Source: Bacteroidales bacterium
GTDB lineage: Bacteria; Bacteroidota; Bacteroidia; Bacteroidales; Tenuifilaceae
Reading direction: 5' to 3'
DNA: 64,000 bases
NCBI GenBank assembly: GCA_017454165.1
Contig: JAFTDN010000023.1
Span: 4,325 to 68,324 of the forward strand
The notes below the pieces were generated by a model. The model was not told where the DNA came from and did no database searches. It worked only from the letters and a program-made list of their open reading frames with translations. The first letter of the stretch is position 1. Each line of letters begins with the position of its first letter. Shown here in pieces: positions 59,212-64,000 of this stretch. The position numbers and the translations under genes are program-made.

Positions 59212-60066
59212 CTACTCGGTTTCAATTGCGGACGTTTGGGCGGGTTGCTGACGCTGGCGGCGGACTGCCTGCACGGTGAACCACAAACCCAGCCCCAGAC
59301 CAACTACAATGGCCACCACCGATGCCTCGGCACCGAACTCGCCGCCGGTGAGCCACTGCGGGCCGGTGAGCGTGGGCTTGATAAGCGACACGCCACCATC
59401 GGTGCCCGAAACGCCAAAGCCAAAGATGCTGCCCTGAGTGAAGTTCCAACCCCAATGCATGCCAATGGGCAGCCACAGGTTGCCCGCATATCGGTAGGCC
59501 GCGCCCAGAAGCAAACCAGCCTCAACGGCTATGGCCAAACACGATAGCAAATCGCCCTGCCCAACGTGGATTAGCCCAAAGAGCACCGACGACACAACCA
59601 ACGCCGCCACAAAGCCAAAACGGCTGTCGATCCAACGGAACATAAAGCCCCGGAAGGCAATCTCCTCGCCCACGGCCACAAGCAGATAGTAGCTCAGCGC
59701 TTGGAGCATGGGCATGAACGATTCGCCAAAGCTGCTGACCCGATAGGCCCCAACAGCGTAGAGAACGGCCACCACCACAAGGAAGTATGCCGCACAGATG
59801 CCAAAGCCCTTGAGCGTGGAAGACAGCAACTGCGACATAGGCAAATCGGGCGCACCATGGTCGCCAAACATCCTGAACGTTAGCTCGTAGGCAACTAGCA
59901 TGGCCACAGCGGCCAGCACGCCCAAACCGCAAACCACGCCAACAGGAAGTCTATCTGTTGCCACATAAAAAACCCCTTGCGCTATGCCATACATAACGAG
60001 CGCACCAAATGCCCCTACAATAAGCAAGCCAAGCCACGCGGCGATGTTCATCTGTTTGATGTTCAT
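59212..60066 (-). CDS. CPBP family intramembrane glutamic endopeptidase (CAAX protease-like)
   Basis: Motif 1 GEEIAFRGFMF, motif 2 FGLIHV, motif 3 HWGWNF. Multiple TM helices. Confidence 0.85.
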   Translation of the reverse strand: MNIKQMNIAAWLGLLIVGAFGALVMYGIAQGVFYVATDRLPVGVVCGLGVLAAVAMLVAYELTFRMFGDHGAPDLPMSQLLSSTLKGFGICAAYFLVVVAVLYAVGAYRVSSFGESFMPMLQALSYYLLVAVGEEIAFRGFMFRWIDSRFGFVAALVVSSVLFGLIHVGQGDLLSCLAIAVEAGLLLGAAYRYAGNLWLPIGMHWGWNFTQGSIFGFGVSGTDGGVSLIKPTLTGPQWLTGGEFGAEASVVAIVVGLGLGLWFTVQAVRRQRQQPAQTSAIETE

Positions 60067-60360
60067 AGTTTGTTTTTGTTCACCTTTTTATGGGCAACAA
60101 CGCCCATGCAATTGGGCGGCAAAGATAACAAAAATAACATGGCATAAGCTTGGGGCTTTGCCTGATAGCCCACATACTTTGGGGCATTGCCCAAAAAATA
60201 TGCAAAAAAAATCGAGAAACTAACAATTGATACACAACGAAAAAAAGTTTATCAGTTAAACAAAATTATAGCCACACTATCTGCGCATATGCGGGAAAGC
60301 GGGCGCAGCTACAGCAATGCCACTGCTATACAGTATTAGCGTACAGGCAGTTTCTTGTTT

Positions 60361-60840
60361 CTATAACGTTAGGCTAACGTTACTTCTTAATAAGTCTATT
60401 TTGTAAGCAAATTGTATTGATAACAAACGAAGATTTTCACTATGTTCATCTCCAACCAATACAATTTGCTCCGCCATCTCGCAAACATATTTGTTCCGCG
60501 CCAATGCCGTTGCCCTTGATTGCCTTGCCGCATTGGAAGTGGAAATGATGAGCAAACGGTTTTGCTCCAACGCCTCTTTCAAATCTGCAGGAACAACTTT
60601 ATACATCTGCCTTCCCAACACCATAATGATTGGTTGCTCCCCTTTCAGCAGAAAATGCAGCACATCTTTCTCCAGCTTGGAGCTGAATCCACTCACCACG
60701 CACCTACTTTGACGGCGCATTTCTGTAGCCCAGTCATAACAACGCAGTACGATTTCCGAAGAAATGGTGTTTGAGGCTAAAAATGCCGTTTTGGGCAGTT
60801 TAAGCAGATCTTTGTTTCCGAGATAATTCAATTCGATCAT
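60361..60840 (-). CDS. DprA/Smf-like (SLOG-fold) protein, short stand-alone form
   Basis: VVSGFSSKLEKDVLHFLLKGEQPIIMVLGRQMY...LLIISTSN....SRATALARNKYVCEMAEQIVLV parallels the DprA core (SG.A.GID..aH..aL..gg.TIAVLg.G.d..YP...LisE......fp.RNRiia.ls....vvEa). Low GC. Confidence 0.6.
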   Translation of the reverse strand: MIELNYLGNKDLLKLPKTAFLASNTISSEIVLRCYDWATEMRRQSRCVVSGFSSKLEKDVLHFLLKGEQPIIMVLGRQMYKVVPADLKEALEQNRLLIISTSNAARQSRATALARNKYVCEMAEQIVLVGDEHSENLRLLSIQFAYKIDLLRSNVSLTL

Positions 60841-60906
60841 ATAGTTTTATTCACTCATTTATTCCCCAAATTATTCCCTCAACAGTTTCTGAATCTTCTT
60901 TTTTTA

Positions 60907-60958
60907 TTCATCTCCCATCCGATACTTGATGTCGTAATTGATGATGAAGTCCAGCTCC
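60907..60958 (-). repeat. R1: orphan copy of the methyltransferase 3' coding end (encodes ELDFIINYDIKYRMGDE-stop)
   Basis: 60919-60958 matches 62156-62195 at 39 of 40 positions (hand alignment). It begins 3 nt after the stop of the DUF1016 gene at 60962. Confidence 0.8.
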
Positions 60959-60961
60959 CTG

Positions 60962-62014
60962 TCAATGTTTGCGAATGTAGTGTTCGCTTGCCACAGCGAT
61001 GGCTTTCTTCAGTTTCTGCGCCAGCACTTTCTTGTCGGGTAATTGCGTGTAATATTGGGCGACCTTGATTGGGCTGTTATCATCCAACATAAGATACTCG
61101 ATATGTTCTGTGTTGCCTTCCGAACATAGAATGAGGCCAATGGGCGATTCTTCCCACCCTTTTCTTTCGTTCTGATTCAAATAGCGAAGATACAGGAGCA
61201 TTTGCCCCTCATGTTCGGGTTTGAACTTGCCCAATTTCAAATCTATGGCCACCAAGCGTCTCAATTCCCTGTGGAAAAACAACAAGTCAAGATAATAATC
61301 GGTTGCATCCACGGTTATACGCTTCTGTCTGGCCACAAAGGTAAAGTCTGACCCTAGTTCCCTTATGAAATCCTCTATTTGGGTGATAATAGCACCTTCA
61401 AGGTCTTTCTCCGTGAAAATATCGGGGAGACCAAGCATATCAAGAAAATAACTGCTTCGAAACACCATGTCGGGCAGCAATTGGTTTCCATCCCTAGCCT
61501 CTTCCAGTTCCTGCCTAACAACCTCTTCGGGCTTACGGCTAATGGCCGTCCGCTGGTAAAGCTGCTGGTCTATCTTCTCGTCCAATGTCCGCGTGTCCCA
61601 ATGTTCGATGCCACACATTTGGGCATAGAATTGGCGTTCAAGAGGGTCTTTAACGCTCATGAGTGTTCGCAGATGTGTCCATGTCAATTGTGTACGCGTT
61701 GCGTACATAATCTCTTCCTCCGAAAAAGTGTACGCAGCGCGTACACAATGTTGGGGCTTGTATAGGCTCCAGCCGCTGCCGTATTTCTCGGCCAGCCGAG
61801 CGGAAAGATTCATGAGGATTTGCTTCCCATATTGGGCGCGTTGATTGTATAGCACATCCTCCTTGATACGTTTGCCTACATACCAGTTTGTCATGCAAAC
61901 TTCTGTATTCAAGTAGGTGGCAATCCGGTTTCTTGCGCCGTCAATAATTTGACACACATCCCCATACAGGGTTTCCTCTGCTTGTGGTTCGCCAATTTGA
62001 ATCTCGTGTTTCAT
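60962..62014 (-). CDS. DUF1016/YhcG family PD-(D/E)XK nuclease (copy 1)
   Basis: Family-typical N-terminal region (NRIATYLNTEVCMTNWYVGKRI, YGKQILMNLSARL, LTWTHLRTLMSV.DP..R.FY) and nuclease core (RQKRITVDATDYYLDLLFFHRELRRLVAIDLKLGKF, PIGLILCSEGN). Confidence 0.85.
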   Translation of the reverse strand: MKHEIQIGEPQAEETLYGDVCQIIDGARNRIATYLNTEVCMTNWYVGKRIKEDVLYNQRAQYGKQILMNLSARLAEKYGSGWSLYKPQHCVRAAYTFSEEEIMYATRTQLTWTHLRTLMSVKDPLERQFYAQMCGIEHWDTRTLDEKIDQQLYQRTAISRKPEEVVRQELEEARDGNQLLPDMVFRSSYFLDMLGLPDIFTEKDLEGAIITQIEDFIRELGSDFTFVARQKRITVDATDYYLDLLFFHRELRRLVAIDLKLGKFKPEHEGQMLLYLRYLNQNERKGWEESPIGLILCSEGNTEHIEYLMLDDNSPIKVAQYYTQLPDKKVLAQKLKKAIAVASEHYIRKH

Positions 62015-62133
62015 ACCATAATAACCATTTGTCCGTTCAGATTATTGCTTTCATTTCTATTCCTCCCCCAACTGGGCTTCGCCCGATTTTCCTCACGCTC
62101 GGCAAAGAAAGCAAGCTTTCTCTGCTCTCGCTT

Positions 62134-62242
62134 AATCGGAAAGTTCATCCCCCATCCGATACTTGATGTCGTAATTGATGATGAAGTCCAACTCCTCCTC
62201 CGTGAATCCATAGTGCTTCGCTAATACTTTGTCTATCTCGTC
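62134..62242 (-). repeat. R2: orphan copy of the methyltransferase 3' coding end (encodes DEIDKVLAKHYGFTEEELDFIINYDIKYRMGDELSD-stop)
   Basis: 62156-62242 matches 63334-63420 at 77 of 87 positions (hand alignment). All 10 differences are synonymous in the shared frame. The stop of the DUF1016 gene at 62233 lies inside the repeat. Confidence 0.85.
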
Positions 62243-63279
62243 CCATGCTCTTTTGCGATTAGTATTGAACGGTTCAACTTATCAATAAACCACTGCTTGT
62301 CGGGCAAGAATGTGGTATATTGCCCCACCTTTATGTGCTCTTCATCCAGCATCAAAAGTTCTATATGCTCGGTATTGCCCTCACTGCAAAGCAACAAACC
62401 GATAGGAGGATTTTCGCCAGGCTGCATGTCATATTTTTGCAAATACTTCAGATAAAGCTCCATCTGTCCTTTGTAATGCGGTTTGAACTTACCCAACTTC
62501 AAGTCTATTGCAACCAAACATTTCAACTTCCTATGGTAGAAAAGCAAGTCAAGATAATAATCGGTTCCATCAATTGTTATGCGTTTTTGCCTTTCCAAAA
62601 AAGCAAATCCTTGTCCCAATTCCAAAATGAAATTCTCCAGTTGCGCTGCAATGGCGTTCTCCAACTCGTTTTCTGTATAATATCCGCTTAAGCCAAGAAA
62701 ATCAAGCACGTATGAACTTTTAAGCACCACTTCGGATTCAATGTGTTGCGGGTTGATTCTTTCAAGCGTATGCACTATTTCATCATCAGGCTTGACGGCA
62801 ATCAGCGAACGCTCGTATGCCATCTCGTCCTGTTTGGCCCGCAATTGCTTAACGCTCCAGTGCTCGGCCATTCCCATTTGTTGATAAAAGAGCCTCTTTG
62901 TCGGGTCTTCTATGGTGACCAGTTCAAGGAAATGACTCCAACTTAATGTTTGCGACAGCATCGCAAACATTTCCTTGTCGCTATAAATGCGAGCCACCTT
63001 CATCATTCTTGTCAGCGCTGAATAAGTGTAACCTTTACCGTAGCGTTCCATCAATCTTTGCGACAGTGTCGCAAGAATTTTTTGTCCGTATGCCGAATAG
63101 GTCTGGTAATTCATATCGTTGGTAATGTATGTGCCTACATTCCAGAACGTCATACTCGACTGGGCATTGACGTAAACAGCCACCTGGCGCATGGAATCGT
63201 CAATAATTTCAGAAACGCCTTGATAAAGCCTGTCGCTGATTTGACCAATCTTTTTAATGTCCAATATTTCGTCTGCCAT
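62233..63279 (-). CDS. DUF1016/YhcG family PD-(D/E)XK nuclease (copy 2, divergent paralogue)
   Basis: Same architecture as copy 1 (RQKRITIDGTDYYLDLLFYHRKLKCLVAIDLKLGKF, PIGLLLCSEGNTEHIE). Elsewhere it has less than half identity to copy 1 by eye. Confidence 0.85.
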   Translation of the reverse strand: MADEILDIKKIGQISDRLYQGVSEIIDDSMRQVAVYVNAQSSMTFWNVGTYITNDMNYQTYSAYGQKILATLSQRLMERYGKGYTYSALTRMMKVARIYSDKEMFAMLSQTLSWSHFLELVTIEDPTKRLFYQQMGMAEHWSVKQLRAKQDEMAYERSLIAVKPDDEIVHTLERINPQHIESEVVLKSSYVLDFLGLSGYYTENELENAIAAQLENFILELGQGFAFLERQKRITIDGTDYYLDLLFYHRKLKCLVAIDLKLGKFKPHYKGQMELYLKYLQKYDMQPGENPPIGLLLCSEGNTEHIELLMLDEEHIKVGQYTTFLPDKQWFIDKLNRSILIAKEHGTR

Positions 63280-63303
63280 AATTCTCTTGCAAAGTTAATG
63301 TTT

Positions 63304-64000
63304 CTATTCCTCCCACGATAACTCAGCCCCAATCCGATACTTGATGTCATAATTAATAATGAAGTCCAACTCCTCCTCCGTGAAACCGTAGTGCTTGGCC
63401 AACACCTTGTCTATTTCGTCGATGATGGGCTTGGATTTATATATTTTATACTCATAAATATCACCACCTGCCCGTTTGTCAAATCGAATAATTCTATTAT
63501 CCTTCATCGAATTAGCAAGTTTTGCAGATGCTGGAACCTGAACATCTTCAATACTAATAGGAAATTCTGAAAGATGCCAAGTGCCCAAATGCCAACAATC
63601 AGAAATCGCAGTATGGAAAATGTAAAATGTTGATGAGTTTAGCACGGAAAAAATATCATCTATATTATTATCAAAAGACAATGTCTTATATGATTTTACT
63701 GGTGTTAAACAAGGGTCAAAATTGAAAGGGAAAACCCAATACGTCTCTCCATAATCTTTGAAGTATAAACGCTCAGAAGAACTTGTCCTACAATGCACCA
63801 TAATATCCTTTTTCTTGGATTGTATTTTTGAAAATATCGATGAAAAAATAGAATCTCCGATTTTTGGGATAATGTCACCTCTATCATTATCAAAAACAGC
63901 CTTTTGATATTTCAGGGTCTTAAACAAATTTGGCTGATGTTTTGTTCGAAGATAGTTTGTCGTATATAAATCTACATCAGTAGAAGAATTATTCATAAAA
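63304..64000 (-). CDS. C-terminal target-recognition part of a restriction-modification methyltransferase/specificity protein (5' part lies beyond the window)
   Basis: The frame is still open at nt 64000. The C-terminal tail EIDKVLAKHYGFTEEELDFIINYDIKYRIG is, from memory, typical of Type IIG/Eco57I-like N6-adenine methyltransferases with a TaqI-like C-terminal specificity domain. Very low GC. Confidence 0.55.
   Translation of the reverse strand, partial: FMNNSSTDVDLYTTNYLRTKHQPNLFKTLKYQKAVFDNDRGDIIPKIGDSIFSSIFSKIQSKKKDIMVHCRTSSSERLYFKDYGETYWVFPFNFDPCLTPVKSYKTLSFDNNIDDIFSVLNSSTFYIFHTAISDCWHLGTWHLSEFPISIEDVQVPASAKLANSMKDNRIIRFDKRAGGDIYEYKIYKSKPIIDEIDKVLAKHYGFTEEELDFIINYDIKYRIGAELSWEE

Follow-up and report, generated by a model that had tools for sequence, protein, structure and literature searches.

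Tail copies of a methylase gene separate accessory defense genes

The stretch analyzed here, called the window, comprises 64,000 nt of Bacteroidales DNA (Tenuifilaceae; assembly GCA_017454165.1, contig JAFTDN010000023.1, positions 4,325 to 68,324). On its minus strand, positions 60361-64000 carry three direct copies of one coding segment, the 3' end of a restriction-modification (RM) methylase gene belonging to Type IIG. One copy (R3) ends an intact gene and two (R2 and R1) are orphans. That each is followed by a different downstream gene had been the core of the original prediction, and pattern, repeat and alignment analyses all confirmed it. Two conclusions are firmly supported: this conserved gene end, hereafter the tail, is an arm for homologous recombination and a recurrent boundary for gene gain, and the orphan copies are non-coding, decaying scars (relics). 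Our favored explanation, on which we are about evenly balanced, is acquisition of accessory genes independently of any recombinase, anchored on tail homology, with each event leaving a truncated tail that subsequently decays. New here is the tail of one Type IIG family as a recurrent joint for accessory defense genes; the wider class of insertions with long target duplication is known. The array comprises the following features, in the order of the minus strand.

63304-64000, minus strand: 3' part of an Eco57I-like Type IIG restriction-methylase gene, with specificity region and conserved tail; the open reading frame (ORF) runs past the window end and the Met codon at 63996 is internal
63319-63435, minus strand: R3, conserved tail SKPIIDEIDKVLAKHYGFTEEELDFIINYDIKYRIGAEL in the intact gene, located by tblastn with the tail consensus and by pattern match; stop codon at 63304-63306
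62233-63279, minus strand: DUF1016-2, a PD-(D/E)XK nuclease gene of the YhcG family (PF17761 and PF06250; PADLOC candidate defense PDC-S02, E 7e-111)
62134-62242, minus strand: R2, an orphaned tail relic that begins with tail codon 6, DEIDKVLAKHYGFTEEELDFIINYDIKYRMGDELSD followed by a stop; 86/98 identical to R3
62071-62137, minus strand: insertion of 67 nt that R2 has and R3 lacks, with an imperfect hairpin (GCAGAGAAAGC-TT-GCTTTCTTTGC) inside it; defined by alignment with R3 and the L133 and L004 alleles
62054-62069, minus strand: distal patch of R2, GGGGGAGGAATAGAAA, equal to the R3 end including the stop codon and 3 nt past it
60962-62014, minus strand: DUF1016-1, second nuclease gene of the YhcG family (PF17761 and PF06250; PDC-S02, E 1e-115)
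60907-60958, minus strand: R1, an orphaned tail relic that begins near tail codon 20, ending in ELDFIINYDIKYRMGDE and a stop; 3 nt past the DUF1016-1 stop
60361-60840, minus strand: small DprA/SLOG-like gene of 159 aa (PF02481, E 4.9e-8; PADLOC PsyrA-like, E 3.5e-12, a partial PsyrA match)

The degenerate pattern DFIINYDIKYR matched three times in the window, always on the minus strand (63335-63366, 62157-62188 and 60920-60951; 0 expected from 100 shuffles). The repeat finder returned a single 98-nt family in which R3 (63323-63420) and R2 (62145-62242) share 88% identity and R1 is a short copy. In local alignments R3 agreed with R2 at 86/98 and with R1 at 44/51 positions, and R2 and R1 were 96% identical across 52 nt. 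The predicted repeats were thus found, but at 98-109 nt and 51-52 nt rather than the 40-87 nt that had been given. As anticipated, R2 and R1 are orphans and not the ends of intact genes, since just 12 and 15 in-frame codons, respectively, are open upstream of them. Both DUF1016 genes had been described as ending 0-3 nt from the next copy. This is the case for DUF1016-1, whose stop codon (60962-60964) lies 3 nt ahead of R1; the stop codon of DUF1016-2 (62233-62235) instead lies inside R2, and its final residues, GTR-stop, are the tail codons D-E-I-D read in another frame. The 67-nt insertion in R2 occurs once in the window and, among the fetched loci, otherwise only in contigs of the same species. 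The distal patch gave a 14/14 blastn-short match to 63301-63314.

Assemblies made independently for at least six samples all recovered the three-tail layout (L001, L002, L133, L134, L136, L137). It is therefore real, and an assembly artefact is ruled out. Every assembly of the locus (L001-L004, L138, L140) breaks within the methylase gene, and two contigs begin inside R1; breaks at these joints are consistent with co-existing strain variants.

The tail is the near-invariant end of a methylase family

The product of 63304-64000 proved to be RM-related, as predicted: it represents the C-terminal portion of a Type IIG enzyme, an Eco57I-like N6-adenine methylase, matching the PADLOC model REase_MTase_IIG (PDLC03628) over positions 621-1098 of 1100 (E 7e-60), and its homologues carry PF07669 (Eco57I methylase). 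Contig L001 lengthens the ORF to 455 aa and shows IIGNPPYV, the NPPY motif of N6-adenine methylases. The extension past 64000 that had been proposed thus reached this motif but not the full gene, exact-protein look-ups giving 1368 nt more. All assemblies end inside the gene, and the window allele is seen for its C-terminal part, with the N-terminal ~650 aa unseen. A full-length relative (L027) covers positions 1-1098 of the 1100 of PDLC03628 with 1145 bits, and relatives measure 1050-1140 aa.

Nearly all of the 120 best homologues (query: the C-terminal 230 aa of the window product) end in SKPIIDEIDKVLAKHYGFTEEELDFIINYDIKYRMG and a short, usually acidic end, and the tail ending in HYGFTEEELDFIINYDIKYRMG plus the acidic end is present in the window gene and nearly all of these homologues. 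For the ~190 aa ahead of the tail, identity is only ~35%. Because the last ~40 codons are near-invariant across phyla and the specificity region just upstream is hypervariable, the tail can serve as a right-hand homology arm. Tail DNA of unrelated loci is 74 +/- 6% identical for a near-identical peptide; synonymous sites vary freely, and the conservation therefore acts on the protein. The identity of unrelated loci and hairpin folding gave no sign of an additional constraint at the DNA level. A PDB sequence search returned remote matches to the BREX PglX/BrxX methylase domain only (E ~1e-6), none of them a structure that explains the tail.

In the relatives the system consists of three genes, encoding a PLD-nuclease/SNF2 helicase, the ~1100-aa Eco57I-like methylase/specificity protein and a ~150-aa DprA/SLOG-like protein, the last gene abutting the methylase stop; this trio may constitute an uncharacterized three-gene restriction-like system. 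On the plasmids pPRO1 of Pelobacter (L143) and pSYSX of Synechocystis (L142), as well as at several loci including L027, L126 and L135, a ~1110-aa PLD-nuclease/SNF2 helicase gene regularly accompanies the methylase gene. Given this pairing, the nuclease of the family may be a separate subunit. A plasmid search yielded 10 records, each with a single-copy tail and with the helicase partner visible there. On pSYSX, a VapC toxin-antitoxin pair lies between the helicase and methylase genes.

The DprA/SLOG-like gene is the commonest next ORF past an intact tail (17/69 loci), its start often overlapping the methylase stop codon. It lies downstream of the tail in 47 of the 126 loci described below, either abutting or after 0.4-3.6 kb of variable genes, and is probably the original neighbor of the tail. 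With the DprA-like gene as commonest downstream partner, the window is best read as a methylase and a DprA-like gene between which two DUF1016 genes have been wedged.

The closest relatives of the window methylase C-terminus, in other gut Bacteroidales (L144, L146), are split or 5'-truncated pseudogenes, in pieces of 140, 135 and 201 aa at one locus and of 769 and 222 aa at the other. The family appears to decay quickly.

Alleles converge at the tail within the species

Contigs encoding an identical DprA-like protein were compared, with 10 places shown of the 17 contigs found. All of the places shown retain R2, DUF1016-1, R1 and the DprA-like gene, and differ in the part upstream. Three methylase alleles (window/L002, L133 and L004) match at 6-12 of 30 nt upstream of the tail, the window and L133 products sharing 36% of their amino acids there, and at 26-30 of 30 nt (87-100%) from the first tail codon on, continuing through an identical DUF1016-2. 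Because alleles with unrelated specificity regions converge at the first tail codon, the tail acts as a homologous-recombination arm in this population. Of the insertion modes originally proposed, the homology-driven one, with new modules displacing older ones, fits best, alleles recombining exactly at the tail; the other, site-specific attachment, is unlikely, as discussed below.

The first position of the array varies further. In L135-L137 the methylase gene is missing, and directly after the PLD-SNF2 helicase gene comes a DUF1016-2 that is 93% identical; in L131, L132 and L139 the position is taken by a third DUF1016 gene (DUF1016-3), ~37% identical, whose junction with R2 lies 27 nt deeper than that of DUF1016-2. 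The locus is also decaying, as seen from a 12-nt slippage deletion in R1 (L135), a 660-nt deletion in DUF1016-1 (L131, L132, L139), the frameshift in DUF1016-3 and the 5'-truncated methylase gene of L133.

Tail relics recur in many phyla

A scan with the tail pattern, covering one genome per species, returned at least 120 loci, to which six loci on viral contigs were added (126 loci); none of the six viral matches was distinctive. By tblastn, at least 143 tail copies were counted in at least 10 phyla, 140 of them in the 126 other loci and three in the window. A long ORF is ended by 91 copies, and 52 are orphan-like. At least 14 loci contain an intact gene and then one to three orphan tails, or several orphans. 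These arrays stack up to four tail copies and were found in Dehalococcoidia, Caldilineaceae and other Chloroflexota, Syntrophobacteraceae, Cyanobacteria, Nitrospirota and Nitrospinota, and further in Ignavibacteria, Poribacteria, Binatia and Armatimonadota. All same-locus tail pairs lie on the same strand (17/17), which upholds the original distinction of these direct repeats from the inverted repeats of shufflons. Every relic that shares a locus with an intact gene sits downstream of it.

The expectation that the segment would be followed by other cargo in other genomes was likewise correct, as many different accessory genes follow it. Between or downstream of tails we found MNT-HepT and HicB toxin-antitoxin modules, PIN, Schlafen/AlbA_2, RhuM, GmrSD, STAND-Mrr and DUF1016 genes, examples being a PIN toxin (L048), a TPR-AlbA_2 protein (L085) and several unknowns. 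Locus L128 repeats the layout of the window, with a Type IIG methylase gene, a tail, a 43%-identical DUF1016 gene, a full orphan tail and a DprA-like gene.

In a cyanobacterial metagenome-assembled genome (L019, 1566-3862), four tails stand in a row, split by two MNT-HepT pairs and a HicB gene. The tail plus MNT units of this locus are 71-84% identical to one another; local amplification therefore occurs too.

Relics keep their right end and lose a variable part of the left

The left boundaries of relics vary from tail codon 4 to 28. Their right ends are intact, running through the stop codon with a spacing to the next gene as tight as for intact tails, and the gap between tail and cargo start is -4 to +25 nt in intact tails and relics alike. 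Because these gaps match native operon junctions, the cargo genes were presumably once downstream neighbors of such a methylase gene. Among 20 inter-tail segments, 18 lack the body of a methylase gene, two contain a complete gene and none is intermediate. Retained lengths, obtained from chained homology and from the inter-tail analysis (~50 measurable truncated copies), are bimodal, with ~44 relics of at most 430 nt, six copies of intermediate length and ~45 of full length (~3300 nt). In about a third of the cases elsewhere, the gene upstream of a relic stops no more than 25 nt away. The genes upstream of lone relics are heterogeneous, including helicases, insertion sequence (IS) transposases and housekeeping genes, so that relics were not all formed in one way.

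A recurrent integrase or resolvase family was not found among 61 ORFs of 16 array loci (top 25 families listed; the upstream side of the window unseen), and each ~1.2-kb unit of the window contains only its DUF1016 ORF. No hairpin was predicted in the tail (DNA folding z from +0.1 to +2.2 on either strand of R3 and R2, and -0.97 for R1), and the repeat search of the window showed no inverted repeat within it.

Cargo genes have separate histories and may carry relics with them

Relatives of both DUF1016 genes number in the thousands, many of them 80-87% identical and from gut Bacteroidales. Of the 120 closest relatives of DUF1016-2, 15 have a tail-derived GT[KR]-stop ending. Relatives that are 86% identical sit at a hotspot between alpha-2-macroglobulin and PBP1C genes (A2M-PBP1C), which lacks this methylase family; their stop is followed by ACGAAATAG and then a weak HYGFT-like stretch. 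In L149 the stretch after the DUF1016-2-like gene is collinear with the relic, its similarity alone not being significant (P ~0.08), and is at most suggestive of a relic.

This A2M-PBP1C defense hotspot was seen in another Bacteroidales species (L149-L158). Its content is strain-specific, comprising an MmeI-type enzyme, a DUF4011 helicase with a TPR protein, or DUF1016 with Vpar_1526, and its final gene is always DUF1016-2-like.

A clear relic (LLASHYSFTEEELDFIISYDIKYRMCDEL) lies at 4756-4863 of L163/L164, starting 12 nt beyond a GmrSD stop codon and ending 28 nt short of a gene for an AAA_15 ATPase, in an island without a methylase gene of the family. Together with the DUF1016-2 junction, this relic suggests that relics can travel with their neighbors.

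Origin of the arrays

In the explanation that we favor, methylase alleles would be exchanged by ordinary homologous recombination, with the tail as the right-hand arm. The exchange would sometimes be imprecise, the incoming DNA bringing the donor tail together with the accessory gene downstream of it in the donor, and illegitimate recombination at the edge of the paired tails would attach the far end, in place of a clean crossover within the tail. The outcome would be the new gene, its tail, the new accessory gene, the truncated old tail and the old downstream gene. The window would reflect two such rounds, with DUF1016-1 entering first and DUF1016-2 second between the methylase gene and its DprA-like partner, leaving behind R1 and R2 as non-coding relics in ongoing decay; a dedicated recombinase would have no part in it. 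Both the illegitimate join and the order in which the genes arrived are inferred. Two observations favor this course over one in which tail and cargo move as a cassette: alleles are directly seen to be exchanged at the tail, and cargo starts resemble native operon junctions.

Several findings weigh against it. Both DUF1016 genes of the window end 0-10 nt from a relic, and in about a third of other cases the upstream gene stops within 25 nt of one; random illegitimate joins would be looser, except where short imports were favored or the junction moved along with its cargo. The 86%-identical relatives of DUF1016-2, in another species and at another locus, end in the same tail-derived GTK-stop, as fits a cassette moving with its relic. 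Loci L082 and L071 carry genes between the methylase and DprA-like genes without a relic, none being found when the interval between DUF1016 and the DprA-like gene was searched. Some within-locus tail pairs are no closer than unrelated alleles (L098 70%, L027 78%; baseline 74%), so that tail origins are heterogeneous. Others are far above this level (L114 95/95 over the aligned stretch, L128 93%), and the comparison of within- and between-locus identity, made as a test of local duplication, thus had a mixed outcome that did not separate the models. The original prediction had also called for deletion variants between the direct repeats; neither R3xR2 nor R2xR1 deletion alleles, nor an empty-site allele, turned up in the same-species contigs shown, and a metagenome scan for the R1-DprA spacer, which would reveal empty sites and junction variants, gave 0 matches.

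A shufflon, an integron, a site-specific system, homing by DUF1016, simple tandem duplication and stepwise module decay are excluded or unlikely. Two homology-based models remain, imprecise allele replacement and cassettes of a tail plus a gene, the joining step being inferential in both. Under the latter, to which we give a rather low likelihood, the tail is a portable attachment site independent of any recombinase: homologous recombination between direct tails would release circles of a partial tail and its downstream gene, which would re-enter any tail by a single Campbell-type crossover (or, as linear tail-cargo-tail DNA, by a double crossover) and carry their junctions from locus to locus and genome to genome. 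The product would have exactly the observed topology, each orphan beginning where the circle closed. Relics do keep to the conserved tail, and gene body is lacking between tails. The GT[KR]-stop junction shared by 15/120 homologues, including the A2M-PBP1C genes, the L163 relic between GmrSD and AAA_15, and tail copies well above baseline (L114, L128 and the 96% of R2/R1 over 52 nt) also fit. Yet no circle, excision junction or single-cassette variant was present in the 10 places shown of the 17 same-species contigs, the homology arms would be very short (43-136 nt, ~74% identity between unrelated alleles), and the founding joint between cargo and tail would need an illegitimate event anyway. 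The similarity of the L149 stretch falls short of significance by itself (P ~0.08), and the decay of relics speaks against selection keeping them as active sites. In its widest form, to which we attach the same low likelihood, the tail would be a recombinase-free 'universal joint' by which defense genes are captured, stacked and exchanged between unrelated genomes as cassettes of a tail and a gene.

The remaining explanations are less probable still. Arrays could be tandem methylase-plus-accessory modules from which the older methylase genes were deleted, tails being left over and tail homology irrelevant. Tandem complete genes do exist (L126, L099), split and 5'-truncated genes are common (L133, L144, L146), six copies are of intermediate length, and IS transposases and housekeeping genes precede lone relics. 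Such decay is nonetheless improbable as the general course, in view of the empty intermediate class among the 20 inter-tail segments and the strongly bimodal lengths; moreover, relics are always left-truncated and right-intact, and random deletions would rarely produce a near-abutting upstream gene twice in one locus. A dedicated system using the tail as an att or attC site for a recombinase encoded nearby or in trans would account for direct repeats flanking single-gene units past a fixed gene end, an arrangement superficially like an integron or attL/attR. It is largely refuted and very unlikely: left boundaries span at least 25 codons, the 1.2-kb units encode DUF1016 alone, no integrase or resolvase recurs among the families listed for the 16 array loci, the tail has no inverted-repeat structure, and its DNA is free at synonymous sites (mean 74% identity for a near-identical peptide). 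The site-specific attachment of the original prediction is likewise unlikely. Local duplication of one unit of tail and DUF1016, with later divergence of the nuclease genes, has the classic layout of tandem paralogues each preceded by a tail, and duplicated tail plus MNT units are seen in L019; for the window it has hardly any likelihood. There the two DUF1016 genes are only 46.7% identical and the non-coding R1 and R2 96%, which agrees with the earlier view of divergent paralogues without recent tandem duplication. Each nuclease gene also has closer relatives (80-87%) in other genomes than its neighbor, and a third, 37%-identical DUF1016 gene holds position 1 in other strains. The least likely explanation is that DUF1016 is a homing-type nuclease that cuts the tail and copies itself in with a replacement tail. 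It is a PD-(D/E)XK nuclease, both window copies abut relics, and DUF1016 genes show a strong enrichment near those for RM specificity (odds ratio 17; PMC9881135); most inter-tail cargo elsewhere, however, is not DUF1016 but toxin-antitoxin modules, PIN, AlbA_2 and unknowns, and DUF1016 genes occur beside the methylase gene without relics (L082, L071) and in unrelated contexts. With cargo this varied, there is no need for a mechanism that the cargo encodes.

Comparison with known systems

The original statement that no mechanism with this layout had been described was too strong, as RM loci with insertions that have a long target duplication are on record (PMC2853133). These insertions are the closest described phenomenon. 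Furuta, Abe and Kobayashi found RM genes inserted with target duplications of 24-420 bp, without mobility genes and by an unknown mechanism; the duplications often span a stop or start codon and keep the target gene intact, GC content is deviant, and the same paper describes allelic diversity of Type IIG specificity (target recognition, TRD) domains (PMC2853133). Gene-sized inserts, direct repeats above 30 bp (here 98 and 51-52 nt) and the lack of a mobility gene are common to both. In contrast to those cases, where the RM system itself is inserted and the target differs per site, the target here is always the same Type IIG tail, the inserts are accessory defense genes and not R and M, and the process recurs in many phyla with arrays of up to four copies. 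The class is furthermore defined by an empty site in the same species, and here none was found among the same-species contigs or in the metagenome scan; other genera in which the tail directly abuts the DprA-like gene (L018, L037, L063, L084) are analogues and not alleles. Nobusato et al. (2000) are also reported to have described such insertions at RM loci.

Homology-facilitated illegitimate recombination, said to have been described by de Vries and Wackernagel in 2002 for naturally transformable bacteria, combines a one-sided homologous anchor with a non-homologous far join, brings in 1-3 kb of foreign DNA and needs no recombinase. Insert sizes are similar to those here. It differs in being laboratory-defined and in normally producing replacement or deletion rather than duplication of the anchor, and its application to the arrays is only proposed. 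Exchange of TRD alleles in Type IIG and Type I specificity genes, by homologous recombination in conserved flanks, involves a hypervariable specificity region between conserved segments, and the alleles of the population studied here likewise break at the tail. Clean exchange duplicates nothing and brings in no additional gene; the arrays need a further, imprecise step.

Integron arrays, too, line up promoterless single-gene units past a fixed point, all facing the same way and each delimited by a repeat. Here, unlike in integrons, there is no attC hairpin, no fixed crossover point and no recurrent integrase among the families listed for the 16 array loci, and the repeat is a piece of coding sequence. 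From an element with attL and attR at a gene 3' end the arrays differ in having no fixed core: left boundaries range from codon 4 to 28, and R2 is abutted at points 27 nt apart. Phase-variable RM shufflons resemble the arrays in using conserved specificity-gene ends as recombination sites, with silent partial copies nearby. They have inverted repeats, alternative specificity domains and an invertase, whereas here all 17 pairs are direct, no invertase turned up and the relics are devoid of specificity domains.

Accessory genes within or next to RM operons are familiar, such as PrrC in EcoprrI and DUF1016 or RhuM between hsdM and hsdS. As in defense-island hotspots generally, gene content there varies at a fixed position, but duplicated gene-end relics are not given as boundaries. 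Milman et al. report DUF1016 and RhuM enriched beside RM specificity genes, and Cj0031-like Type IIG genes with a PLD and SNF2 neighbor (PMC9881135). In a limited literature search we found no description of tail-relic arrays or of the NYDIKYR motif.

Other features of the island

The region is the downstream end of a defense island around a Type IIG-like restriction-methylase system. G+C content is 32-47% in the block and 51-61% in most of the flank from the Rce1-like gene (59212-60066) onward. The edge was placed as follows.

60067-60360, no strand: right edge of the low-GC island, from the composition profile and the ORF list; G+C climbs from about 40-47% in the island to 55-61% in the Rce1-like/CPBP gene at 59212-60066 and past it

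Both nuclease genes encode DUF1016_N (117-118 bits) and YhcG_C (162-165 bits), against Pfam cut-offs of ~32.5 (E 1e-34 to 1e-48). The accessory nucleases are probably co-transcribed second-line defense genes. The small gene scores 32.9 bits against PF02481 (cut-off 29.6) and 24 bits against the DprA equivalog TIGR00732 (cut-off 191). Because the latter score is below its cut-off and the Rossmann/SLOG part alone matches, the product is a protein with a DprA/SLOG-like domain, not DprA.

Short, near-perfect palindromes lie within the DUF1016_N coding regions of both nuclease genes (61687-61749, 62945-62972 and 63053-63080). One has 21-nt arms that are 95% complementary; two are of the form TTGCGA..GTCGCAA, encoding ..A.LSQ.., and the palindromes may be a simple by-product of codon choice. 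Contig k141_71001 of L133 is 96% identical to window positions 59235-63438, from the tail through the Rce1-like/CPBP (PF02517) gene, and has different neighbors past it (GSHPx, acyltransferase, and HNH and Dcm RM genes). The Rce1-like gene may thus belong to the transferable block despite its host-like GC content.

Implications for the growth of defense islands

Defense islands are known to be mosaic, and for the entry of single genes at particular points this locus offers a concrete, recurrent joint in the conserved end of one widespread methylase family. About a third of the genomic tail copies are relics of past acquisitions, and the arrays can therefore be read like strata of successive events. 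They also supply an example, defined by its sequence, of insertion with long target duplication, and make the mechanism of that class, open since 2000, testable. Should the tail be a universal joint, it would be functionally an integron without an integrase, with relics still acting as recombination arms after loss of the methylase gene. Scanning for orphan tails is a cheap route to defense-gene cargo and can date the turnover of RM specificity.

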